This document shows, piece after piece, positions 48,386 through 62,030 of a DNA stretch of 64,000 nucleotides. How positions within the stretch are numbered: the stretch's first letter is position 1; every line of letters starts with the position of its first letter. The translations under genes were made by a program, and so were the position numbers. The notes below the pieces were generated by a model. That model did no database searches. It saw nothing but the letters and a program-made list of their open reading frames with translations, and was not told the DNA's origin. The stretch comes from a bacterium (GTDB lineage: Bacteria > Electryoneota > Electryoneia > Electryoneales > Electryoneaceae), in NCBI GenBank assembly GCA_963675295.2, contig CAXXKJ010000002.1, forward strand, positions 3,648,001 to 3,712,000. The letters are read 5' to 3'.

Positions 48386-48548
48386 GTATCTCCAACCGGT
48401 TGTTTTCCGGCGTGGTTACCGGGTTCCCGCAACTCTGCGGATCGGGTCTCGTGATTCCGTTCAAGTTGTCTTACATTAGCGTAGTGTGAATCGTGTAGCC
48501 GCCAGCGTTTGCGGCGACAATTCCAGCTATCCCGTACCACGGCAGGCC

Positions 48549-50018
48549 ATGATCCCAATTGACCCGGCACAGGCTGGCAATACGGGACTGATCCAACTGG
48601 CGGATCAGACCTATACGACGATTCAGTCCGCGTTTTCGCGTCTGATTCGGTCGCTGGAATTGGCTGCCGCGGCGACTGAGCGATACACGGAGTATGAGCG
48701 TGCGGAGATGTCCGTTGCGTCCGAATTCTGGCAATCGCGTCAGGAACGGTTCAACGCCATCCTTTCCGCCAACGAACGGCTCCGCCAGCCGGTTCTCGAT
48801 CGTCTGGCTGCCACCTTACCGCCGAACCGGGCGATCCTGCGCTTTAGCCTCGAACGCCTGAACAACGACTTCTTCCAGTTGTTTTCCGAATACGGACCGG
48901 ATCGTCTCGACGTGCTCGGCACGGTCATCTCGTCGTTCAATCAGCAGGACCCGTCGGTCAACCTGAATCTGCTTTCGCATGTGCTTGAGGGCGCGCCGAA
49001 TTTCTATGTGCCGTTGATGTTGAAGGGATCGTTGCTGCTGGAGTCGGGGATCTCCATCTCGGAAGCGCCGGCGTTGCTCGAACGTGCGGCCGACAATCCG
49101 CCCCAGGCCGATAATCCGAACCGGTACCGCATCCTCGCACTGGAGCTGCTTGGGGAAGCGTTGGTGCGCAACAACCGGGAGAGTGATGCCGCCCGTGCCT
49201 ATCGCCGAGCGCACAAGCTCGACCTCGAAAACCCGCTGTTCCATTACCTTACTGCCCGCGCCCTCGCTCATGGGCGGAAATCGTCAGACGCGTTGGAAGC
49301 CTTTGACCGCGCGGTGAAGGTCGATTCGTCCTACTATCCACTGGCACTGTTGGACGACAGCTTCGAGGTCATCCGGGACGTGATCAAAGATCGTTTGACC
49401 GATCGCACCTTGCAGTGGGCCGATACGATCGAGTCAGTGTTACGCATGGCGGACACCGTCCATGTGATCGCGGAAGACTACGGCCTGATTGACCACCCGA
49501 CCGTCGCCCGTGGATCGCAGGAACTGATCCAGATCAAGGACAAAGTCACCACGCAATCGTATACGCTCTACCGTGAACTCGGCCTGGTCCAGCTGCCCGA
49601 ATGGATCAAGAGCTGGGTGGGGCATGTGCAGGACACACTGCAGAATTCGCTGAAAGCCCGCTATGAGTCGATCCAGGCCTACAACCACGCGCTGCTCGAC
49701 ACAGTCAAAGACTACCGCAAGCACTGGGTGAAAACCTGGGGGATCGGCTGGTTTGCGGTCGGCTTCCTGCTGATGGTCGTCCTCGTACTCGCCCGTCAGC
49801 CGGTACTCGCCGCGATCTATTTTTACGTGATGTGGATTCTGTCGGGCTACTTCCTGCGGCTGTTCCTCGACAGCCGGAAACGTTCCCAGCTGCTCGATCA
49901 ACGCAAGAATCCGGCGATGCTGCAACCGGTTGAGGACGATATCGACCTCATCGGACGTATTCGTTCCGAGATGCTGGTGCTGCTGGAGAAGCAAACAGAT
50001 ATCGAGCAGGAGTTGTAG
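48549..50018 (+). CDS. TPR-containing protein with two C-terminal TM helices
   Basis: TPR-like helices (ALELLGEAL...AYRRAHKLD; HYLTARAL...AFDRAVKVD) and a hydrophobic hairpin. Confidence 0.7.
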   Translation: MIPIDPAQAGNTGLIQLADQTYTTIQSAFSRLIRSLELAAAATERYTEYERAEMSVASEFWQSRQERFNAILSANERLRQPVLDRLAATLPPNRAILRFSLERLNNDFFQLFSEYGPDRLDVLGTVISSFNQQDPSVNLNLLSHVLEGAPNFYVPLMLKGSLLLESGISISEAPALLERAADNPPQADNPNRYRILALELLGEALVRNNRESDAARAYRRAHKLDLENPLFHYLTARALAHGRKSSDALEAFDRAVKVDSSYYPLALLDDSFEVIRDVIKDRLTDRTLQWADTIESVLRMADTVHVIAEDYGLIDHPTVARGSQELIQIKDKVTTQSYTLYRELGLVQLPEWIKSWVGHVQDTLQNSLKARYESIQAYNHALLDTVKDYRKHWVKTWGIGWFAVGFLLMVVLVLARQPVLAAIYFYVMWILSGYFLRLFLDSRKRSQLLDQRKNPAMLQPVEDDIDLIGRIRSEMLVLLEKQTDIEQEL

Positions 50019-52102: not shown

Positions 52103-52176
52103 CGGAGCGTGGCGCAGCCCGGTAGCGCACCTGACTGGGGGTCAGGGGGTCGCTGGTTCAAATCCAGTCGCTCCGA
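52103..52176 (+). tRNA. tRNA-Pro(GGG)
   Basis: CGGAGCG/CGCTCCG acceptor stem, CCTGA-ctGGGgg-TCAGG anticodon arm, GGTTCAAATCC T-arm; CCA not encoded. Confidence 0.97.
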
Positions 52177-52223
52177 CATTGGATAGTAAGGGGTTAGCAG
52201 AAATGCTGATCCCTTTTCTCTGT

Positions 52224-52343
52224 CCATGGGGCACTGGTGGGGCAGAAACCGCCAAAATCCTCAGCTGGTAGCAGCCATTCACCCTCTGCCTTTTTTCCCA
52301 GATTCCTGCATATTTACACGCTGAGTGCCCCGTGAGTGCCCCA
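52224..52343. promoter_or_regulatory. putative integrase arm-type sites (TGGGGCACTCA-like repeats)
   Basis: ccatggggcactggtggggcag (52224-52245) and tgagtgccccgtgagtgcccca (52322-52343); a matching ccatggggcactcatggggcag lies at 61809-61830. Confidence 0.65.
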
Positions 52344-52519
52344 CATAAAAAGAGTCTGCCGGAAATCTCAAGATTTATAAGGTTTTCAGCAGGCTGTTCT
52401 TCTGAATACTAATCAGGTGTTGACTTCGTTCGGGGTGTTTGTTGCTTGAGGAGGTTGCTGGTGGGGGTCGTGTTAGACACGGCATGATTTCACCGGCAGC
52501 GAAGCCCGGGAGAGGCACC

Positions 52520-53047
52520 ATGGCGAATATCGAACGCAGGAAAGCGAAAGACGGTTCAACGTCCTACCGTGTGAAGATTCGTCATCAGGGGCACTCTAAC
52601 GAAACAAATACATTCGGCAAGCCGACAGAAGCCCGGGATTGGGCACAGGAAACCGAAGCCAGCATTCAGGCGGGACGGTATCTCCCCTCCATGGAAGCAC
52701 GGAAGCACACCCTTAGCGATCTGGTGGATCGGTACCTCAAGAACGTGATCCCGGAAAAGAAGAGCGGCAAGGATCAGGTGTACCAGCTTGAATGGTGGCG
52801 TGATCGAATCGGAACGTATCCGCTCGCCAGTGTAACGGCTGCTCTGATTTCCGAATGCCGGGACGAATTGAAGCAGAGCGGCAAGAGCAATGCAACGGTA
52901 AATCGGTTCCTTGCCGTGCTAAGCCATGCGTTCACCCTTGCCGAGCGTGAATGGGAGTGGATCGATCAGAACCCGTTCCGCAAAGTGTCCAAGCTGAAAG
53001 AGCCACGAGGGCGCGTACGTTTCCTCCTGCCGGGAATCACCGAATGA
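52520..53047 (+). pseudogene. truncated tyrosine recombinase/integrase (arm-binding and core-binding domains only)
   Basis: MANIERRK..YRVKIR, SNATVNRFLAVLSHAF..A.REWEWIDQNP, ends at RVRFL before the catalytic domain. Confidence 0.9.
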
Positions 53048-53145
53048 CGTTTGACTCATCCGACTTTGCGAGCGCTTTGTATTTCATCCGTGCAACGGTA
53101 TCCGGTCAAATGGACCAGGTGCAAAAAATGATGTTGGTGAGGTGA
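53026..53145 (+). pseudogene. orphan fragment of a secreted-protein C-terminal sorting domain
   Basis: Alternative frame reads AGNHRMTFDSSDFASALYFIRATVSGQMDQVQKMMLVR*, resembling T9SS/FlgD-like tails. Confidence 0.65.
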
Positions 53146-53611
53146 CCGCCAAGGGTACCGACCAGAAAACTCAAGAGCTTAAAGTAGCATTCGGTTCATT
53201 TTGTCGAAATAAACCAACCTGTGCGGTTACGTGGATCGTAGAGGGTGTTTGACCTCAAAAGATAGACTCCGCTAACATTTAGATATTGTTAGCTTTGCCG
53301 AAAAGATGATCGTCACACTAGACTGATGCAAAACCAGTTCCTAAGATTAATTTGACAGAATTGCAGGTTTGGTCGCCTTCAATAATCAGAATCTGACTAG
53401 ACATATAACAATAGTTGTAATTTAGATAGATTCAATGTTGAATGATCGCAGTTAGTGAGAGACAGGATAGGGGGATGAGTATGTCAAGTCTTGCGAATTT
53501 TGATTTTTTGGATTATTTTTAGGCCGATGTCAAGAGATGCAAGTGGTGCTTACTTAGGGGGAAACACCACTTTCCGTGACGCCCCTCCGGGACAACCGAT
53601 GAATTGAGGTT

Positions 53612-54292
53612 GTGGTGGCGCTGCACAATGTAACCAGGTTCTTGGCAATCTGGATGATCGTATCGTTATCGTTTTTGTCCGTGGGTTTTGCATCTGAGAA
53701 ACCCGCGTCGCCAGCCTCTGTTCAACCCAAGGTTCGCCCTCAACAGCCAGTTTCTGAACGGATGAAACTCAATTCGTCCGAATGGTCGCAGCCCTCTCTG
53801 CAGCTCCACGCTCGCACCCTGCCGGACAGCCTCGATGTTCAACGCGGAAAGCAGGATCAGGGGAAGAGTATCAGCACTGGCGTCCCGACCTTCGATTTCG
53901 AGATTCAGACGGATCCGGTGATCTACTACGAGGTCCCCGGCGCACCCGGCGAATACCAGGGCCAGCAACCGATCCACCTTCAGATCACCAGCAACGCGAG
54001 CCAGTTTGAGCTTGACGATATCACCTGGCGTCTTCACTGCCGGATGGACTCGCTCCGTTCGTCTGACGACACATTCGACCTTGAACGCTTCCAGGTACGT
54101 GTCGCAGGCCAGGGGGAGTATGCACCGTTGAGCCAACCGCTGGTAGTGTTGCAGCAGACGGGAATGCAGAATCCACAGCAGGTGGATTTAGATGTGAAAT
54201 TCCTCGTCAGCCTGGGGGATCGTGCCGGAGATTACAACGGCGGGTTGACGTTTGAGCTTGAGTTGGTGGATGAAGTAGTGGAAGTTGAGTAG
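53612..54292 (+). CDS. secreted pilin/WxL-like beta-sandwich protein
   Basis: Signal peptide, linker, C-terminal AGDYNGGLTFELEL strand. Confidence 0.65.
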   Translation: MVALHNVTRFLAIWMIVSLSFLSVGFASEKPASPASVQPKVRPQQPVSERMKLNSSEWSQPSLQLHARTLPDSLDVQRGKQDQGKSISTGVPTFDFEIQTDPVIYYEVPGAPGEYQGQQPIHLQITSNASQFELDDITWRLHCRMDSLRSSDDTFDLERFQVRVAGQGEYAPLSQPLVVLQQTGMQNPQQVDLDVKFLVSLGDRAGDYNGGLTFELELVDEVVEVE

Positions 54293-54729
54293 GCAGGACA
54301 ATTGATCGCGGCGAAGTGTCCGCGAGCCGTAAAGACATGAATATGGGCCGGTCTCCAGCCGCCAAAGCGAAGAACCGGCCCACACGGGCACCCCAGAAGA
54401 AGGGTATGGCACCGTTTCGTCTAAACTAACTGTAGCCGGGCGGTCAGGTCAAGCAGTTTCTATCAGCGCTGTTAGACAAGCGTGCTATGGCCGGAACATC
54501 GCCCACACCCGGAAGGCTGCAGTATGGCGATACGGTGCCCGGGCCCGTGATACTGATGAGGTTTGAGTTTTATAACGAAGCCGTTCATTGACAAGACACA
54601 CGCCGTTGCCCGAGCCGCCAGCTCATATGCCGGGCCACGTTGTGAAACAAAACAGAAATCGGTCAGGGAAGGCCGATGAATCGGTCACCGGTCAGATTTG
54701 ACCGGGGCAACCCCAGAAAAAGGAGAAGG

Positions 54730-55212
54730 ATGATGAAGAAGCTCATGTTGATCGCCATTGCGATGCTCGTCGCGGTGGGCGCATTCGCGCAGAACGACCT
54801 TGGGAATCCCGAAGCGATCGCTGACGTAACTCTCGCGATTTCCCCATATGCTGAAGTTAGCTCTTTGTACCCAACGATTGGCTATCAGACGAATTTCCAT
54901 GGTGCCTCGTTGCCCTTGGATATTCCTGTGGTCGGTGGTGTAACCATCAGCACCAACGACGACGTTACAGCCACGGTTGCCTTTGAAGCACTGAACATGA
55001 ACCTGACAGTTTGGGACGCGCTTGTCTTTACCGGTTTGTTCGACGATGATTCCGCCAGCAAATCGTTCATTAACGGAGTGCACAATCCGGGCGTGAAGCT
55101 GCACATGGACTACACCCAGGCATACAACGACGGCTCGGTTACCTGGACCGATATCCCCGCTGAAAATCTTGGAACGGTTGGTTCGATTGTTGTTACGGTG
55201 ACGAGCAATTAA
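54730..55212 (+). CDS. pilin-like secreted subunit 1
   Basis: MMKKLMLIAIAMLVAVGAFAQ signal, DVTLAISPYAEV, C-terminal GSIVVTVTSN. Confidence 0.75.
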   Translation: MMKKLMLIAIAMLVAVGAFAQNDLGNPEAIADVTLAISPYAEVSSLYPTIGYQTNFHGASLPLDIPVVGGVTISTNDDVTATVAFEALNMNLTVWDALVFTGLFDDDSASKSFINGVHNPGVKLHMDYTQAYNDGSVTWTDIPAENLGTVGSIVVTVTSN

Positions 55213-55416
55213 AGACTTGTTGCGATAGACTGGCATGCTCTGCTGAACCTAGGCCCCGCAGAAACTTCAGCAGAGCATGTTTGAATTTGTGCAGTTGAAC
55301 GTTGCCCGAGCCGCCAGCTCAATAGCCGGGCAGAAGCTTGAAGTAACAATCGGTCGTTGCCGGCCGATCACACGGCCACCGGTAAAGAGGCCGGGAGACC
55401 CAGAAGAAGGAGAAGG

Positions 55417-55854
55417 ATGATGAAGAAGCTTATACTGATCGCTCTCGCGATGCTCGTCGCGGTGGGCGCGTTTGCGCAAATGACAGCAGACAAAGACGTT
55501 ACCCTTACGATCTTACCGTATGCACAGGTGACGGCACCTCCCGCAGCAATTGAACTGGAGTATGATCCGGCATGGGGATTCTCCGACTGGGCTTTGGGCG
55601 GAAACGCTTATAGTTGGAGCATTGACACAAACTTTGACATCGACGCCACGATGACGTATACGGACAATGGTGTCACTGGTGTCACGATTACCAATGCCGG
55701 CTTCTTCCTGAACCCGGGCGTACAGCAGGTGCTGTCCCTTACGGCGGGTCAACATCAGTACGGAACATTTGTTGATCTCGACATCGTCGATTGGACACCT
55801 GCGGCTGAGGATCTTGCCATCGGCACGCTCACTGTGACGCTTTCCGCTCAGTGA
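55417..55854 (+). CDS. pilin-like secreted subunit 2
   Basis: Same signal, DVTLTILPYAQV, C-terminal GTLTVTLSAQ. Confidence 0.75.
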   Translation: MMKKLILIALAMLVAVGAFAQMTADKDVTLTILPYAQVTAPPAAIELEYDPAWGFSDWALGGNAYSWSIDTNFDIDATMTYTDNGVTGVTITNAGFFLNPGVQQVLSLTAGQHQYGTFVDLDIVDWTPAAEDLAIGTLTVTLSAQ

Positions 55855-56018
55855 AAAAATGCACTCAACCCGGCATCTAATAGGATGCCGGGTTGAGTGA
55901 CTTATGCCCGAGCCGCCAGCTCAATAGCCGGGCATAAGCTTGAAGTAACAATCGGTCGTTGCCGGCCGATCACACGAGCACCGGTCCAAGACCGGGGTAC
56001 CCCAGAAGAAGGAGCAGG

Positions 56019-56474
56019 ATGATGAAGAAGCTTATGCTGATCGCTCTCGCGATGCTCGTCGCGGTGGGCGCGTTTGCGCAGCCGTACCAAGCCAATACCC
56101 TTCCGTTGGATGTTAACCTTACCATCAGTCCCTATGCAGAGCTTGCCTGGGTTACGGGCCAAGCTCCATTGGCGCTTGTATTGGAGCATCCTACCTGGTC
56201 GGACAACGAAACTGCGTATTTTAATTGCGCTTCCAACTTTGGCTTCATCATTGCGCAGACCTTGTCCGCGCCTTGGGGATCGGGATTTATGTCTGGAGCG
56301 TCGGTCGATCCTAACAATGATTTCGGGTTAAATGACGGTAACGGTGATGCCGGCAGTTACACCAACGTACCTGTAAGAGTAACTGCCATGATCTCCGGTT
56401 CGTATGAATGGTATGAAAAACAAGAGGGTAACTACGGAAACGGCACCCTTACGTTGACGATTATCCAGCAGTGA
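56019..56474 (+). CDS. pilin-like secreted subunit 3
   Basis: Same signal, DVNLTISPYAEL, C-terminal GNYGNGTLTLTII. Confidence 0.75.
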   Translation: MMKKLMLIALAMLVAVGAFAQPYQANTLPLDVNLTISPYAELAWVTGQAPLALVLEHPTWSDNETAYFNCASNFGFIIAQTLSAPWGSGFMSGASVDPNNDFGLNDGNGDAGSYTNVPVRVTAMISGSYEWYEKQEGNYGNGTLTLTIIQQ

Positions 56475-56727
56475 GTTAGCCAGTCATTTTTTTCGTGGAA
56501 GATTGACAAGCCGTTCAGGTCCAGAAGTATTAATACGGAATAGCGACAGCGGCTGTAGAAGACAGGAAAACACATTCACGGAGCCTGAACCTGGCTCCGT
56601 GAATGTCCACTGCCCGAGCCGCCAAAAGGATACGCCGGGCAGCTAGGTCTAGAAGAAAATCGGTCAGGGAAGGCCGATCACACGGCCACCGGTCCAAAGA
56701 CCGTGGTACCCCAGAAGAAGGAGAAGG

Positions 56728-57213
56728 ATGATGAAGAAACTTATGTTGATTGCTCTCGCGATGCTCGTCGCGGTGGGCGCGTTTGCGCAGCCGCCTGATT
56801 TCCAAGAAACGATTGACGTTTCGGTCACTATTGATTCGTATTGCTCTTTCTCCCTGGATGATGGTAGCCTGAGCATTGCGATGACTGGTGGCGATACGGA
56901 AGAGGAATCGGGTGTGATTCAGGGTTCATTCGCCAGCAACGACATGGCTATGCTTGTCTTTTCGTACGAGGGTTTAGGGACAGATTACATGACGAACGTA
57001 GCTGGGTATTCCTGGTTGCGGTATTTTGATGCAACAGTTGGGACTGTGTATGCTGGCTATAATGTCGGTCTCAATGAATTTATGAACTATCCGCTGATTA
57101 ACACGGAATCCAGAGACTTTACAGTCGGCATTAAAGTTTCAATGCCACAGTTTACGGATATTCCGGCTGGCACGTATTCAGAAGTTCTTGTAGTGTCAGT
57201 TTATTGCCTGTAA
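56728..57213 (+). CDS. pilin-like secreted subunit 4
   Basis: Same signal, DVSVTIDSYCSF, C-terminal PAGTYSEVLVVSV. Confidence 0.75.
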   Translation: MMKKLMLIALAMLVAVGAFAQPPDFQETIDVSVTIDSYCSFSLDDGSLSIAMTGGDTEEESGVIQGSFASNDMAMLVFSYEGLGTDYMTNVAGYSWLRYFDATVGTVYAGYNVGLNEFMNYPLINTESRDFTVGIKVSMPQFTDIPAGTYSEVLVVSVYCL

Positions 57214-57411
57214 TGATGTGGCGCAGCAAGTATTGATCGCTACAGATTGAACCCTCCACAGAGCATTGGTCTTGCTTCGTGGAAGCATGGTTGCCCGAGC
57301 CGCCAGCTCACATGCCGGGCGATGGACTGAAACGAAACAGAAATCGGTCAGGGAAGGCCGATCACACGGCCACCGGTCCAAAGGCCGGGGTACCCCAGAA
57401 GAAGGAGAAGG

Positions 57412-57864
57412 ATGATGAAGAAGCTTATGCTGATCGCTCTCGCGATGCTCGTCGCGGTGGGCGCGTTTGCGCAGTCGGATGCTAACGATGTCGCAGATCT
57501 GATTGTCACTATCGAACCGTACGCCTACGTTGAAGTGACTTCGGATGCTGTTGGTGTGACAATTACGCCACCAAATTGGGTGGCGACTTCTGAAGATCCC
57601 ATCGTTTTTAATTGCTGTGCAAACTACGGTTACTATCTCGAATACACAGCCAATAGCATGATAGCGAACCCATACTACATCTTTGTGTCACCTGTTGATC
57701 CAACTCTCGCAGCTTACGACGTAACTTCTGGTGAGCACATTGGCTTGGAGCTATATGCTCAGGTAGAGGTCTGGGATCAGGAGGGTTACCAGAATCCGTA
57801 TGATGTGCCGTTTGGTGAGTACACAGGCATGAACATAAACGTGCAGATCTATCCTGCGCCTTAA
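57412..57864 (+). CDS. pilin-like secreted subunit 5
   Basis: Same signal, DLIVTIEPYAYV, C-terminal PFGEYTGMNINVQI. Confidence 0.75.
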   Translation: MMKKLMLIALAMLVAVGAFAQSDANDVADLIVTIEPYAYVEVTSDAVGVTITPPNWVATSEDPIVFNCCANYGYYLEYTANSMIANPYYIFVSPVDPTLAAYDVTSGEHIGLELYAQVEVWDQEGYQNPYDVPFGEYTGMNINVQIYPAP

Positions 57865-57891
57865 GGTTACATAACCATTGATAGGAAAGAC

Positions 57892-58392
57892 ATGAAGCCA
57901 ACACTGGCTGTATTTATCGTTTTACTGCTGTTGTTGACTACAGCGGGTTACAGCCAGACGGACACGGCAAGCATTCCCGTGAATCTGACCATCGAGCCGT
58001 ATACGGAAATCGATATCGCAAACGATATCATCATGACAACCGTGGAAGGCTGGTGGTTCAGTTCCGGGATGGAGATGGAAAGTGTTGGATCGACCAGTGT
58101 GCAGGTTGGAACCAACACCAACGCGACCCTTGTCTGTCCGGCGACCTTGGATATGCAGTTGATCGATCCTCCGGGACCGGAGATTATGACAGTGCGGACG
58201 GCTGTTTCCTACATGTACCCCGGGCACCCGCAGTATTATGCCCAGGGCGGGCAAGTCATCTGCATTGATCTCGAACCGGGCCTGCACACGGCGATCTCAC
58301 TTGAGGCATCGTTGTCGAAGGTGTGGAACGTCGGTGAGGATCTGGCTGGCACGTACCAGGGGACATTGACAGTGACTGTCACAGAGAACTAG
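57892..58392 (+). CDS. pilin-like secreted subunit 6 (own signal peptide, no shared leader)
   Basis: PVNLTIEPYTEI, C-terminal AGTYQGTLTVTVTEN. Confidence 0.75.
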   Translation: MKPTLAVFIVLLLLLTTAGYSQTDTASIPVNLTIEPYTEIDIANDIIMTTVEGWWFSSGMEMESVGSTSVQVGTNTNATLVCPATLDMQLIDPPGPEIMTVRTAVSYMYPGHPQYYAQGGQVICIDLEPGLHTAISLEASLSKVWNVGEDLAGTYQGTLTVTVTEN

Positions 58393-58423
58393 TTTGTGGC
58401 CTCGCTGTTGAACTTTGTAACGG

Positions 58424-58454
58424 GTGAAAAGCCGGAGATCCTCCGGCTTTTCAC
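58424..58454 (+). terminator. terminator/attenuator-like hairpin between the subunit array and assembly genes
   Basis: gtgaaaagccggag-atc-ctccggcttttcac, a 14-bp stem. Confidence 0.65.
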
Positions 58455-58480
58455 TCGATTGATCTCATTGTGAGGACGTC

Positions 58481-60100
58481 ATGCGTACCATTCTGATCAC
58501 ACTTTTGGTGATTTCTGCATTCATGGTCTGTGATTCCGTCCAGGCTCAGGGCTTCATGGTTAAACCGATGCGAATCGAGATGGCCGGGACTCCCGGGCAG
58601 CAGGTGCAGGTCGACCTCCAGATCAACAACACCAGTGCGGACAAGGCACCGGAAGTCCTGGTTGGGAAATGGTACCTCGATCAGGGAAATAACGGCAGCT
58701 ATCAGCCGTTGGCGACGGATGAAGTACCGTCTGAGCGCAAACAAATGATGCAGAGTTGTTTCGACTGGATGACGGTATCGGAAAACACTCTGATCGTACC
58801 ACCCCTGCAACAGGGACTAGTCACGGTTTCTGTGCGTATTCCCAGTGATGCAACGGGTACTTATTCTGCGCTACTGACGGTTGAAAATGTCCCGGAACGC
58901 CGCCCCGGAACCATTGGGATGGTGATGCGGTTCGTAGTCCCCGTAATTGTCGATGTGCGTGGCCGTTCCGCTCGCACGGAAATCGATCTTGCAGGCGTCT
59001 CGCTGAACTACGTGGAGTCAGAACAGAATGCGTCAGGAGAAAGTACACCCGCCGTGGACAACCTGCACGTTTCTGTCGCCAATGAAGGCAAGATTCGTGG
59101 TAAAGTCAGCGGTGATGTGACCATCTTGCGCAAGGCCGGCACGGGCTGGCGCCAGGTGACGGTTGTGGAATTCCCTGAGAAGACGGTCATGCCCGGAACG
59201 AGCTGGGATTTCGTGCAACCTTCCCCGCGCAGATTGGCAAGCGGCACCTACCGGCTGAGCACGAATTTCCTGCTGGATGGCCGGAAGATGCGTCCAATGA
59301 ATGAGATCGTTGAATACAAAGGTGATCCGTCGGTGACGACGGTGCAGGAAGATGTTTCGTTAATGATCGAGCCGCGTGTGGCTGAGATCGAGGGTGTACC
59401 GGGCGCGCGCCGCACGGCTCGCATTCGAATCCAGAATCCCAGCGAACAGCAGCTTTCTGTCAGTATCAGCAGCATGACGCCGAAAACATTGCAGGGCGTG
59501 GCAATGGGTGACGTAAAGGGCGAGGAGTATGCTTGTAACGAATGGCTGAATCCGAATCCGGCTGAGTTTACCCTTCGTGGTGGCGGCGAACGTACGGTGG
59601 CTGTCAGAGTCAGTTTTCCCGAAGAAAATTCGGACAAACCCTTCCATTATGGCAGTCTGGTGATTACGGCCACCTATGCAAACGGCGAAACCGCCAGTTC
59701 GGAAGAGGTGCTCGTGGTGGCGAAAAACCGTGAACTGGAAGCGGCACCGCACTTGTATCCGTACACGGTTTCAATCTCGCAGGTTGAGGGCAAGCAGTAC
59801 GCCGTGTCTGGTAAGTTTGGCAATGTCGGCAACGTGCACCTCTACCCTACCTGCCGGGCAACGTTATCCAATACGTCCGGCACACAGGTTTTCAAGCAGG
59901 CCGATCTGAATGCCGACATGGATCTTGTGTTGCCAATGGGTACACCGGTTTACAACGGCGTGCTTGACCTGGACGGTGTTAATGACGGCACGTACAAGCT
60001 GACGGTGGCTGCAACGTACGGTGAGCATGTGGCGAATAAGGATCTCGCGCTGCGTGTGACTACGAATGGCAACGGCAAGCAGGTTGAAGTGCTTGACTGA
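58481..60100 (+). CDS. periplasmic chaperone-like multi-Ig protein (PapD/DUF916-like, internally duplicated)
   Basis: Signal peptide; two repeats of 'V.P.RIE..G.PG...I.N...SC.DW...' each followed by a 'N.G....' Ig domain. Confidence 0.65.
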   Translation: MRTILITLLVISAFMVCDSVQAQGFMVKPMRIEMAGTPGQQVQVDLQINNTSADKAPEVLVGKWYLDQGNNGSYQPLATDEVPSERKQMMQSCFDWMTVSENTLIVPPLQQGLVTVSVRIPSDATGTYSALLTVENVPERRPGTIGMVMRFVVPVIVDVRGRSARTEIDLAGVSLNYVESEQNASGESTPAVDNLHVSVANEGKIRGKVSGDVTILRKAGTGWRQVTVVEFPEKTVMPGTSWDFVQPSPRRLASGTYRLSTNFLLDGRKMRPMNEIVEYKGDPSVTTVQEDVSLMIEPRVAEIEGVPGARRTARIRIQNPSEQQLSVSISSMTPKTLQGVAMGDVKGEEYACNEWLNPNPAEFTLRGGGERTVAVRVSFPEENSDKPFHYGSLVITATYANGETASSEEVLVVAKNRELEAAPHLYPYTVSISQVEGKQYAVSGKFGNVGNVHLYPTCRATLSNTSGTQVFKQADLNADMDLVLPMGTPVYNGVLDLDGVNDGTYKLTVAATYGEHVANKDLALRVTTNGNGKQVEVLD

Positions 60101-60149
60101 CGTCTCCCGACAACCTCCTCACTATCGTTTTGAGCAAAGGGATGCTGTG

Positions 60150-61772
60150 ATGCGTGTTATCCGATATGCCTTGCTTTCTCTCGCGCTGATCGTACTTTTT
60201 TCAGGATGTACGGCGAACAAGCAGTTTGACGAACGGCTGGCTGTTCCGCAGCAGCAGGCGAACGAGATTGACTTCGCGTTGGAAACGGTGGCAAATGCGC
60301 ACCAGGCGCAGAACTACCAGCGCATGGTGGATGTGCTCAAGGATGTTGTCGCGAACGGGTATGTGTATCACCGTGCGGATGAAATCCTGTATTGGATCGG
60401 GGTGGCGCGGGTGAACATGCTGCATGCCGATCAGGCGATGCAGGCGTTTGCCACGCTCCGTGACTACTATCCGTGGATTGAGGGCAAGTACCCGGACCTC
60501 GTTGAATGGGAGGAGTTGGCCCAACGGATGATACGCGATCGACAGGAGGCTGCCAGCGATGCGGACGAGATTATCAATTCGCTGGACGATTCCGCCTGGT
60601 CGGACGACGGTACGCCGCTGGTGTCAAACTCGTTCTTCGATTCCGATCTTCGGATGGTGCTCGCAGATTTAACAGCAGACACAGGTGTCCGCATTATCGC
60701 CGACCCGCAGGTCAGCGGATTTGTGACGGCTGATTTTTACGATGTACCGCTGGAAGAGGTACTGGAGCAAATCCTGCTGCCGAATGGGTTCACTTACCGC
60801 AACATGGGCGACTACTATCTCGTTGGGGATGCATCAACAAGCAGCCCGTCTTTCGCTACGATGTCTGAAACACGTCGATTCCCGCTTCGCTACCTCCGCA
60901 CCAGCCAGCTCGAGGCATTGTTGCCCGACGTCTTCATTGATTATGTCCGTTTTGACCATACCTCGAATACGATTACGATCACCGCCTCGCCGATCATGGT
61001 TGATCGGTTGAGTATCATCCTTGACGAAATCGACGTCCTCCCCACCCAGTTCCTGATCGAGGTGGAAGTGCTCGAGATGAGCAAGGAGCTTGAACGTTCG
61101 CTGGGGCTGAACTGGGATTTTATCGGAACAAAGAGCGATCAGAGCTTTGTCTTTTCGCAGCTGGCGCCGGATTCTCTGGTGGCGTCTCTGCTCGGTGAGG
61201 TCATCGCAACAGGCGAATCAGGACCGGAAGGGTTTACTGTTGACCGTCGCACCGCCATTAACGCGTTGGCGGACAATGGGCTGGTGAAGGTACTGGCCAA
61301 TCCCCGCCTGAGCACGCAACAGGGACAGGCCGCGACAATCCGTGTCGGAAAGGAAGCCTACTTCAACCTGCTGGGTAATTCTGGGACCTATATCACGTCG
61401 AATGCGCTGGAGAAGATCTCCACCGGTGTCACGCTCAGCATTGTCCCGTTCCGCGGAGAAAATGCGCAGATCACCACCGATCTGGATGTGGAAGTCAGTG
61501 ATGTCCTTGATCCTGGAACTGGTGGATTGCCTGTAACCAGCGTACGCCAGGTAACCACACGGTCTACGGTTGCTAATGGCAATACGCTTGGTGTTGGTGG
61601 ATTGTTGCTTGAGAACGACCGGAAGAGCCGAAGCGGAATTCCAGGACTGAGTGAAATTCCTGTTCTTGGGTATCTCTTCGGTCAAACGACGACAGAATCT
61701 GTCACCACCGAGGTGGTTATCCTGATTACACCACATGTTCTCTTGCCGCCAGATTTGTTTCGAGATCTCTGA
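60150..61772 (+). CDS. lipoprotein secretin with N-terminal TPR-like domain, N domains and secretin C domain
   Basis: Lipobox LFSGC, DLRMVLADL..GVRIIADPQVSG, KVLANPRL, TGVTLSIVP, GIPGLSEIPVLGYLFG, EVVILITP. Confidence 0.92.
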   Translation: MRVIRYALLSLALIVLFSGCTANKQFDERLAVPQQQANEIDFALETVANAHQAQNYQRMVDVLKDVVANGYVYHRADEILYWIGVARVNMLHADQAMQAFATLRDYYPWIEGKYPDLVEWEELAQRMIRDRQEAASDADEIINSLDDSAWSDDGTPLVSNSFFDSDLRMVLADLTADTGVRIIADPQVSGFVTADFYDVPLEEVLEQILLPNGFTYRNMGDYYLVGDASTSSPSFATMSETRRFPLRYLRTSQLEALLPDVFIDYVRFDHTSNTITITASPIMVDRLSIILDEIDVLPTQFLIEVEVLEMSKELERSLGLNWDFIGTKSDQSFVFSQLAPDSLVASLLGEVIATGESGPEGFTVDRRTAINALADNGLVKVLANPRLSTQQGQAATIRVGKEAYFNLLGNSGTYITSNALEKISTGVTLSIVPFRGENAQITTDLDVEVSDVLDPGTGGLPVTSVRQVTTRSTVANGNTLGVGGLLLENDRKSRSGIPGLSEIPVLGYLFGQTTTESVTTEVVILITPHVLLPPDLFRDL

Positions 61773-61945
61773 TACACACTCGATCTAACAACGCAGCTGC
61801 TACTAATTCCATGGGGCACTCATGGGGCAGTGTCCCCAAGAAATCCCCGTAAATCACAATAACATGAGGCAGGAGATAACCGGCTATCTAGCAATTATTC
61901 CTATCGTTAACGCTTGTAGAGTGTTGTGATTGTTGCGCTGGATAG

Positions 61946-62030
61946 GACTGGGGGTCAGGGGGTCGCTGGTTCAAATCCAGTCGCTCCGACACTGGAAAGT
62001 AAGGGGTTAGCAGAAATGCTGATCCCTTTT
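61946..62030 (+). repeat. att site: duplicated 3' half of tRNA-Pro plus terminator hairpin
   Basis: Matches 52133-52217 with 2 mismatches. Confidence 0.95.

Follow-up and report, generated by a model that had tools for sequence, protein, structure and literature searches.

A leader and signal-peptide block repeated at five secreted-subunit genes in an Electryoneaceae genome, a candidate 5' expression module

Overview

The window is a stretch of 64,000 nt from a bacterium of the family Electryoneaceae (assembly GCA_963675295.2, contig CAXXKJ010000002.1, positions 3,648,001 to 3,712,000 of the forward strand). Reading and alignment of its positions 54000–58200 revealed a block of 115–124 nt in five copies (c1–c5), each located directly 5' of a gene for a secreted subunit. 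The best explanation for the block is a private 5' expression module of about 180–187 nt, made up of a 115–124-nt leader and 63 nt of signal-peptide codons, and placed before five anciently diverged pilin-like genes. The leader may be an intercistronic element that sets mRNA processing, stability, and translation, a reading that is favored here tentatively and at slightly under an even chance. Judged from the nucleotide sequence, RNA appears to be a better-supported level of action than DNA, because the copies show compensatory pairs, loop-length variation, and an excess of G-U pairs, contain no consensus promoter, and are preceded by stable 3' hairpins.

Position and anatomy of the modules

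The five modules and a degenerate sixth copy (c0) are located as follows. Bit scores are from covariance models; model R1 was built from c1–c5, and the scores of these copies (129–152 bits) are therefore high by construction.

54338–54412, + strand: c0, degenerate sixth copy; 15.3 bits, expectation value (E) 0.23; minimum free energy (MFE) -34.5 kcal/mol, z -2.39
54606–54792, + strand: module 1, with leader 54606–54729 (hairpins 1–3, A-rich linker, Shine-Dalgarno [SD] sequence) and signal-peptide codons 54730–54792; 133.3 bits
55302–55479, + strand: module 2, with leader 55302–55416 and signal-peptide codons 55417–55479; 129.2 bits
55904–56081, + strand: module 3, with leader 55904–56018 and signal-peptide codons 56019–56081; 138.1 bits
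56610–56790, + strand: module 4, with leader 56610–56727 and signal-peptide codons 56728–56790; 133.5 bits
57291–57474, + strand: module 5, with leader 57291–57411 and signal-peptide codons 57412–57474; 151.7 bits

The start codons behind leaders c1–c5 are at 54730, 55417, 56019, 56728, and 57412. The 12-mer GCCCGAGCCGCC begins at 54608, 55304, 55906, 56612, and 57293; it was seen five times in the window, compared with 0.53 occurrences expected, and none of 100 shuffles reached five. Hairpin 1 has the form GCCCG-N18–19-CGGGC, and its loop begins with the invariant AGCCGCCA. It is followed by an A-rich linker, of which there are three unrelated versions (A fraction 0.44–0.50). Hairpin 2 is ATCGGTC-N6-GGCCGAT, the 6-nt loop being AGGGAA in c1, c4, and c5 and GTTGCC in c2 and c3, and hairpin 3 is CCGGT(C)-N3–8-(G/A)CCGG. 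Each leader has a strong SD sequence, the ribosome site AGAAGAAGGAGAAGG, immediately 5' of ATGATG. An earlier description made from the letters without database searches (the sequence-only reading) had reported five leaders of this three-hairpin form before five subunit genes, and both the number of copies and the hairpins agreed with the sequence in all of them. It had also reported an invariant loop motif and a shared ribosome site. Both were recovered, as GAGCCGCCA in the loop of hairpin 1 and as AGAAGAAGGAGAAGG-ATG, with single changes in c1 and c3.

Some copies have features of their own. Copy c1 carries AATCGGTCA twice, 22 nt apart. In module 3, hairpin 1 is lengthened to TTATGCCCG/CGGGCATAA, and the hairpin-1 loop of module 4 has one additional base and a distal half unlike that of the other copies. 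In c0, the stem GGGCCGGT/ACCGGCCC, which differs from those of c1–c5, encloses the AGCCGCCAAA loop motif, and the 3' part, ACACGG..CCCCAGAAGAAGG, is followed by an open reading frame (ORF) of seven codons only.

Conservation beyond the start codon, selection, and exchange between copies

The conserved element had been described as a 5' leader, which proved too narrow, as the conservation runs 63 nt into each coding sequence. It covers the signal-peptide codons MMKKLMLIALAMLVAVGAFAQ and ends exactly at the cleavage site. These 63 nt are 90–100% identical among the copies, synonymous sites included; c3 and c5 are the same over the whole length, and a 23-nt run, GCGATGCTCGTCGCGGTGGGCGC, is invariant in all copies. 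Homology breaks off abruptly at column 191 of the alignment, directly after the last signal-peptide codon, and the mature subunit proteins are only 15–31% identical. The leaders are 79–84% identical over their full length (97% for c4 and c5 over the 3' 75 nt), and leaders and signal-peptide codons taken together are 85–96% identical between copies.

The sequence-only reading had also proposed that stems are kept while linkers and loops vary. This was borne out: 13 of the 48 paired columns were variable versus 41 of the 56 unpaired ones (Fisher p = 4e-6, in a test that relies on a structure derived from the same five sequences). Since variability is concentrated outside the stems, purifying selection is considered to act on them, on the GAGCCGCCA motif, and on the ribosome site. 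The arms of hairpin 2 (14 nt) are invariant around two unrelated 6-nt loops, and the core of hairpin 1 is invariant around two unrelated distal loop halves. Selection on the stems follows from the consideration that gene conversion alone would homogenize the loops along with them.

Exchange between copies was traced by site patterns. Columns 24–68 group c2 and c3 versus c1, c4, and c5, whereas columns 92–107 group c1 and c2 versus c3, c4, and c5. The patterns are incompatible (four-gamete violation), and segments have therefore been exchanged between copies by recombination. By these patterns, the conservation of the leader copies appears to be partly a matter of concerted evolution, and both selection and segmental exchange appear to have shaped the module.

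Predicted RNA structure

Just outside its invariant core, at the base, hairpin 1 has the column pair 3/35, which reads U-A, U-G, A-U, C-G, and U-A among the copies, and a two-sided change was also observed in the pair 2/36 of the same hairpin. The spacing of the arms differs among copies, being 3–8 nt in hairpin 3 and 18 or 19 nt in the loop of hairpin 1, and c1 extends hairpin 3 by an extra A-U pair. Across the predicted pairs, 11 G-U cells were counted versus one A-C cell, in agreement with the earlier remark that the stems tolerate G-U pairing. Copy c0 presents the AGCCGCCA loop on a different stem. The ribosome site was predicted to be mostly unpaired in the five copies (probability 0.54–0.90), and because it is predicted to be open, the leader looks like a stabilizer and a uniform translation start rather than a switch.

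A number of results weigh against an RNA element with a role in processing. Two-sided changes were found in only 2 of the 28 predicted pairs, and hairpin 2 (7 pairs) is invariant and shows no covariation. The alifold covariation term was +1.64. The shuffle controls were marginal, the covariation score being reached by 31 and the number of paired cells by 18 of 500 shuffles. The MFE z-scores of the leaders ranged from -0.8 to -2.1 on the + strand, and in two of the five copies the - strand gave values of that order as well. The three-hairpin fold dominates the predicted ensembles in c3 and c4, that is, in two of the five copies; in c1, c2, and c5, the helix probability was 0–0.27 for hairpin 1 and 0.02–0.39 for hairpin 2, and a rival hairpin, GGCCG-AUCACA-CGGCC, equals hairpin 2 in stability. 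Conserved stems with variable loops would be expected just as well of palindromic protein sites in DNA, and the hairpins that follow the genes could be true terminators, in which case each copy would need an unrecognized promoter of its own. No homologue that could confirm the structure independently was found beyond this locus in the genomes and contigs searched. The sequence-only reading had proposed a protein-binding or processing RNA element that coordinates the subunits. An RNA-level cis-element is still the best reading; the designation as a candidate new cis-regulatory RNA exceeds the evidence.

Two further possibilities were rejected. Duplexes formed by the leader and the signal-peptide codons through long-range pairing had energies of -38 to -43 kcal/mol, no better than those with shuffled codons (z -0.5 to +0.3). 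An upstream ORF running through the leader was considered, the GCCCG-to-ATG lengths (122, 113, 113, 116, and 119) being all equal modulo 3, and ORFs ending at an ATGA overlap are present in c2–c5 and absent from c1. There is no conserved leader peptide, because the frame through hairpin 2 in c2 and c3 differs from that in c4 and c5, c1 has no such ORF, and the start codons differ.

Promoters, 3' hairpins, and the proposed mechanism

The promoter consensus of this genome was taken from the regions upstream of its tRNA genes and reads TTG(ACA/CAT/CGY)-N17-TAnnTT. Housekeeping promoters of this uncultured-type lineage are of the ordinary TTGnnn-N17-TAnnTT kind and not of the Bacteroidota type. 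A strict scan of 53000–58600 gave nine matches on the + strand, none of them in a leader or an intergenic spacer, and only two are at gene 5' positions (53491 and 58366). For sigma-54, the best promoter candidate was an 8/11 match at 57280, of the same quality as 1374 sites genome-wide and so at background level; it was rejected. The two promoter-like sites and the hairpins that follow the first three subunit genes are listed below.

53491–53519, + strand: best promoter-like site, TTGCGA-N17-TATTTT, 5' of the 226-aa gene (53612–54292) that heads the locus
55232–55281, + strand: non-conserved 16-bp hairpin after gene 1, followed by TTTGAATTTGTG, a T-rich tail; centroid -26.2 kcal/mol
55862–55899, + strand: non-conserved, perfect 17-bp hairpin after gene 2; -33.6 kcal/mol, z -10.05, 0/200 shuffles
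56572–56606, + strand: non-conserved 14-bp hairpin after gene 3, stopping 3–4 nt before module 4
58366–58395, + strand: second promoter-like site, TTGACA-N18-TAGTTT, just 5' of the 539-aa gene

Centroid or MFE values of the hairpins after genes 1–3 lie between -26 and -34 kcal/mol (lowest z about -10), and the structure after gene 4 is weak (z -0.75). Because only 2 nt separate the gene-2 hairpin from the extended hairpin-1 stem of module 3, there is no room for a promoter between them. No T-run was found on the + strand behind the hairpins after genes 2 and 3. As these two hairpins (55862–55899 and 56572–56606) have an A-run 5' on the + strand, on the minus strand they have the score of intrinsic terminators, and they could halt antisense transcription across the leaders. 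The pattern of promoter-like sites and 3' hairpins fits one long transcript of the subunit genes.

In the favored reading, transcription starting at the promoter-like site at 53491 would yield a single long mRNA of the subunit genes. Each cistron would close with a non-conserved hairpin of high stability, after which the conserved leader would open the following one. Genes for RNase E/G and RNase Y are present (336.8 and 136.6 bits, respectively), and either enzyme might cleave the single-stranded junction or the A-rich linker, and the products would have protective 5' hairpins at the front and a protective 3' hairpin at the end. With the ribosome site AAGGAGAAGG left unpaired, every paralogue would have a defined stability and would initiate translation at an equally high rate. 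In the loop of hairpin 1, the invariant GAGCCGCCA would be the best candidate for a site recognized by a protein or nuclease. Purifying selection acting on stems, motif, and SD sequence, together with segmental gene conversion, would keep the copies uniform. Two RNA binders were rejected as partners: CsrA (PF02599) was not found in this genome (92.8% complete), in a search in which the controls responded, and a GGA loop is present in only three of the five copies; Hfq was not found in the genome either.

Searches for the leader elsewhere

No further copies were found in the same genome by blastn with copy 5, other matches being at most 22 nt long. Among 60 relatives searched by blastn, no match covered the leader part. 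Covariance model R1 detected no leader in 78 other genomes of the phylum, with a best foreign score of 29.7 bits. This match, in genome G006, was rejected, as it lies inside a 926-aa ORF (by eye resembling an AAA+ chaperone) and matches solely via a purine-rich AAGAAGGAGAAGGATGA run. A blastn match in genome G027 was also rejected, as it consists of the ribosome site and generic MKKLML codons of an unrelated 489-aa protein. Matches were present in 8 of 401 Planctomycetota genomes, all of them restricted to the ribosome-site and signal-peptide part of the query, so none represented the leader. Metagenomes were scanned with the pattern GCCCGAGCCGCC-N8–14-CGGGC-N10–40-TCGGTC, which gave at least 120 stretches with a single match, mostly on high-GC contigs. 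Among the 80 metagenome loci listed, scored together with 5 others, the covariance model gave at best 23 bits, and none was located 5' of a comparable gene.

Rfam 15 returned only tRNA-Pro for the whole window. A permissive search of 54200–58000 yielded ten matches, all at most 19.2 bits with E of at least 1.4 and far below the gathering scores. The statement that the element is not a known riboswitch was therefore upheld at the level of Rfam 15 gathering scores. A search of other genomes had been proposed with that statement, and it gave no copy outside the locus in the genomes searched of the phylum and of Planctomycetota or among the listed metagenome loci. The leader is probably a lineage-private module of one horizontally acquired island and not a widespread new RNA family.

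Alternative explanations

The block may instead act at the DNA level, which is considered somewhat unlikely. Each gene would then be a transcription unit of its own, with an unconventional or activator-dependent promoter, a short 5' UTR, and a terminator hairpin, the inverted repeats and CGG(T/C)C would be operator or activator sites, and only hairpin 3 and the SD sequence would be transcribed. Tandem duplication units normally bring their own promoter, and the strong hairpin after each gene could terminate transcription, the one after gene 1 having a T-rich tail and those after genes 2 and 3 lacking a T-run on the + strand. Because true terminators would require a promoter in each module, this explanation retains substantial weight. 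The conservation pattern also fits half-sites with free spacers, but a rigid dimer would not accept the differing spacer lengths of hairpins 1 and 3, compensatory changes are present just outside the hairpin-1 core, and the asymmetry of G-U to A-C is 11 to 1. A sigma-70-type match to the genome consensus and a sigma-54 pattern are both absent from every copy. Two points that agree with this explanation are the repeated AATCGGTCA of c1, with its 22-nt interval, and the BTAD-type regulators encoded beside the paralogous and orthologous loci, one of them 4 kb upstream of the present locus and outside the island.

A sigma-28 (FliA) promoter was considered as one form of this explanation. The -10 consensus of sigma-28 is GCCGATAA, and the 3' arm of hairpin 2, GCCGATCA, matches it at 7/8 positions. 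GCCGATCA is found in all five copies (as GCCGATGA in c1); in the -35 position, TAAC is located 15 nt upstream of it in c2 and c3, and the sequence there is CAGA in c1 and c5 and AGAA in c4. FliA is encoded in the genome (247.5 bits, cut-off 189.6) together with three flagellin genes (C2:2208302, 2209846, and 2876272). Two of the three, flaA and flaC, have a clear sigma-28-type promoter upstream, TAAAG-N16-TCCGATA(A/G), in agreement with the pattern TAAA-N15/16-(G/T)CCGATAA, whereas the leaders have C instead of A in the -10 element, and GCCGAT occurs 5521 times in the genome.

It is unlikely that the block is a by-product of gene conversion, that is, an ancestral 5' untranslated region (UTR) and signal peptide with hairpins that have no dedicated function, in which conversion tracts stop where homology stops. 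Such an origin would account for the conserved synonymous sites of the signal peptide (with GCGATGCTCGTCGCGGTGGGCGC invariant and c3 equal to c5 over 63 nt), the abrupt boundary at column 191, and the absence of the element from the other genomes and contigs searched, and the four-gamete violation shows that recombination took place in the past. It accounts poorly for two unrelated 6-nt loops in identical stems, for the hairpin-1 loop and the three linkers, which behave likewise, for the distribution of variable columns (13/48 in stems versus 41/56 outside), and for the fact that all versions of the linker are A-rich (0.44–0.50) despite their differing sequence.

A stronger form of the favored reading is distinctly unlikely. 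In it, the module would be a self-contained RNA expression cassette, in which a dedicated protein or nuclease reads GAGCCGCCA and, with the 3' hairpins of the cistrons before it, the transcript is cut into five equally stable and equally translated mRNAs, so programming the ratio of subunits in a hitherto undescribed, secretin-dependent fiber of pilin-like subunits, and the repeats would allow cassettes to be exchanged by recombination.

DNA recombination between the directly repeated modules, by deletion, duplication, or gene conversion, varying the fiber subunits that are expressed from one promoter for the locus, is improbable. The locus has the hallmark of the Vpma system in its conserved 5' UTRs and signal-peptide codons and in the adjoining tRNA-Pro and integrase gene, there is a single promoter-like site upstream, and past exchange between modules is evident. 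Against this, the integrase has no catalytic domain, and the att-like repeats explain it as a remnant of island integration. The modules are all direct, so that site-specific recombination would delete and not invert them. Variants, joints, or rearranged forms were not found in the contigs of three DNA runs, which is weak evidence, as contigs break at repeats.

A ligand-sensing riboswitch or an RNA thermometer gating translation is very improbable. Hairpin 2 can pair alternatively with the next CGGCC segment, as a switch might; the ribosome site, however, was predicted to be unpaired in all copies (0.54–0.90), there is no multi-helix junction, the loops are freely replaceable, and neither a terminator behind the leader nor a T-run after hairpin 3 is present. 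The element has no Rfam match and is confined to one locus, without a core shared across the genomes searched. Integron attC sites, which have the core consensus GTTRRRY, mark the 3' end of promoterless cassettes, and have an IntI integrase nearby, were rejected, since GTTGCCC is incompatible with it, the repeat spans the ribosome site and signal-peptide codons of the downstream gene, and the sole integrase is a truncated one of the phage type.

Comparison with known systems and significance

In papBA and daa fimbriae, the mRNA of the major subunit is cut from a longer transcript in an RNase E-dependent manner and is long-lived because of its hairpin-protected ends, and the ompA 5' UTR is a 5' stabilizer hairpin. 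The present locus resembles papBA and daa in having a leader for pilin-like subunits, hairpins that may protect the ends, and a strong ribosome site predicted to be exposed. It differs in that five paralogues share one leader, whereas papBA and daa have single sites in proteobacterial operons and no sequence similarity to the leader. Tandem flagellin paralogues are alike in being filament-subunit paralogues in a row with similar upstream regions, and the leader sequence GCCGATCA is near the sigma-28 -10 element; in contrast to flaA and flaC, which carry the full TAAAG-N16-TCCGATA(A/G), the -35 match of the leaders is poor in three of five copies.

In the cip-cel cellulosome operon of Clostridium cellulolyticum, as described in the accessible part of the report, intergenic processing sites and stem-loops set the stoichiometry of the subunits (PMC4423207). 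[quoted passage not shown] The 3' stem-loops that are a criterion for SRPS have counterparts here in the hairpins 55232–55281, 55862–55899, and 56572–56606. The cip-cel processing sites are mapped and the stem-loops are gene-specific (PMC4423207), whereas here processing sites are proposed from sequence, and one conserved module is repeated five times and reaches into the coding sequence.

The vpma genes are reported to have a conserved 5' UTR and signal-peptide region, recombination sites in the 5' UTR, and a unique promoter, and their locus is flanked by a tyrosine recombinase gene and a tRNA gene (PMC2268961). The Vpma and Vsp families of Mycoplasma agalactiae and M. bovis are similar to the present genes as tandem families with a conserved 5' UTR and signal peptide and divergent mature parts (PMC2268961). 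Vpma variation needs an intact Xer1 recombinase and inversions of opposed genes (PMC2268961), whereas the integrase here is truncated and the genes have one orientation.

If the RNA reading is true, the locus would be a clean natural case of a rule difficult to observe elsewhere, in which paralogues diverged almost beyond recognition are forced to share a leader and a signal peptide, the signals for expression and export being held constant while the exposed part varies. It would help to explain how little-studied relatives of the Bacteroidota encode the stoichiometry of fibers and surface variation. A limit to its value is that the element is private to a single island of horizontal origin. 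The surrounding gene set, with pilin-like subunits that have no detectable sequence relatives, a 539-aa Ig-like protein, and a secretin, recurs in Planctomycetota and may be the more interesting object.

The tRNA-Pro island

The fiber locus is located on an island of about 9.8 kb integrated at tRNA-Pro (window 52103–62010). It was recognized as an integrated island because the locus lies between tRNA-Pro and a direct repeat of that gene's 3' part and is accompanied by an integrase gene that is truncated.

52133–52197, + strand: attL-like repeat, comprising the 3' part of tRNA-Pro (gene 52103–52177) and about 20 nt
52439–53047, + strand: truncated tyrosine-integrase gene, with Int_N and SAM-like domains only
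61946–62010, + strand: attR-like direct repeat of 65 nt, tRNA-Pro 3' part; 46 nt are 100% identical to the tRNA of the congener G001

No integrase catalytic domain was found in any frame downstream of the 52439–53047 ORF. In the congener G001, the flank with MerR and tRNA-Pro is 92–93% identical over the MerR part, and nothing of the island was found within 20 kb of it. A contig of 1060 nt from run X4, whose depth was fivefold that of the other X4 pieces, matches 54304–54754 without a difference and has unrelated sequence before 54304; c0 and module 1 may have a second genomic context in that sample.

Genes and proteins of the locus

The six subunit genes, all on the + strand, and the genes for the 539-aa Ig-like protein and the secretin form one co-directional locus.

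54730–55212, 55417–55854, 56019–56474, 56728–57213, and 57412–57864, + strand: five paralogous genes for secreted subunits with near-identical signal peptides
57892–58392, + strand: sixth subunit gene, without the module
58481–60100, + strand: gene for the 539-aa Ig-like protein
60066–61772, + strand: STN-secretin gene (PF00263, 127.4 bits; STN, 31.9 bits)

None of the 12 members of the subunit family had a Pfam match. A phmmer search with subunit 2 against 1.84 billion representatives gave five matches, namely subunit 2 itself, subunit 3, and three giant repeat proteins. In the Atlas, the subunit had SCPU/DUF4402 as neighbors, and the 539-aa protein was next to a PapD-like cluster. The AlphaFold2 model of the subunit was of low confidence, with a mean predicted local distance difference test score of 63.6, and the top Foldseek rows were the chaperone-usher pilins CfaB and CsuA/B (E at least 7e-3, template modeling score at most 0.44). 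A pilin-like nature of the chaperone-usher type is a lead only, suggested by these model-based comparisons. A literature search for DUF4402 together with secretin found nothing relevant.

Among 78 other genomes of the phylum, one (G009, 35% identity) encodes a relative of the 539-aa protein over its full length, as do two Planctomycetota metagenome-assembled genomes (MAGs). The orthologous loci (G009/L045, L191, and L192) have a similar gene order with one or two subunit genes, and no homologous leader was found at any of them. The recurring set (53612–61772; L045/L190, L191, and L192; L046) consists of a secreted protein of 226–325 aa, one or more pilin-like subunits, an Ig-like protein of about 540 aa, and a secretin. 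Its subunits have an N-terminal DVxLxIxPY strand and a C-terminal AGxYxGxLTVTV strand. In addition to the Planctomycetota MAGs, a second, divergent copy of the set is present in the same genome at C2:158000–172000. The set may be an undescribed secretin-dependent fiber system with chaperone-usher-like subunits.

BTAD-type regulators with the C-terminal motif WRSKKA..LL....PV.K..L..FLWP adjoin orthologous and paralogous fiber loci. They are listed below; the window protein was assigned with Pfam, and the remaining ones by eye.

48486–50018 of the window: BTAD/TPR protein, 4 kb upstream of the locus and outside the island
716–2284 and 9699–11096 of L046: BTAD-type regulators
7533–8984 of L045: BTAD-type regulator

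In a Sedimentisphaerales MAG (L192, 4537–7511), a recent tandem duplication of 1.5 kb includes a subunit gene and its whole upstream region. A TTGACA-N17-TATATT sequence is located about 640 nt 5' of the ATG, so that the 5' UTR may be very long. The hairpins just 5' of the ribosome site differ between the duplicates by compensatory changes (CATTAG/CTAATG versus TGTCAG/CTGACA).

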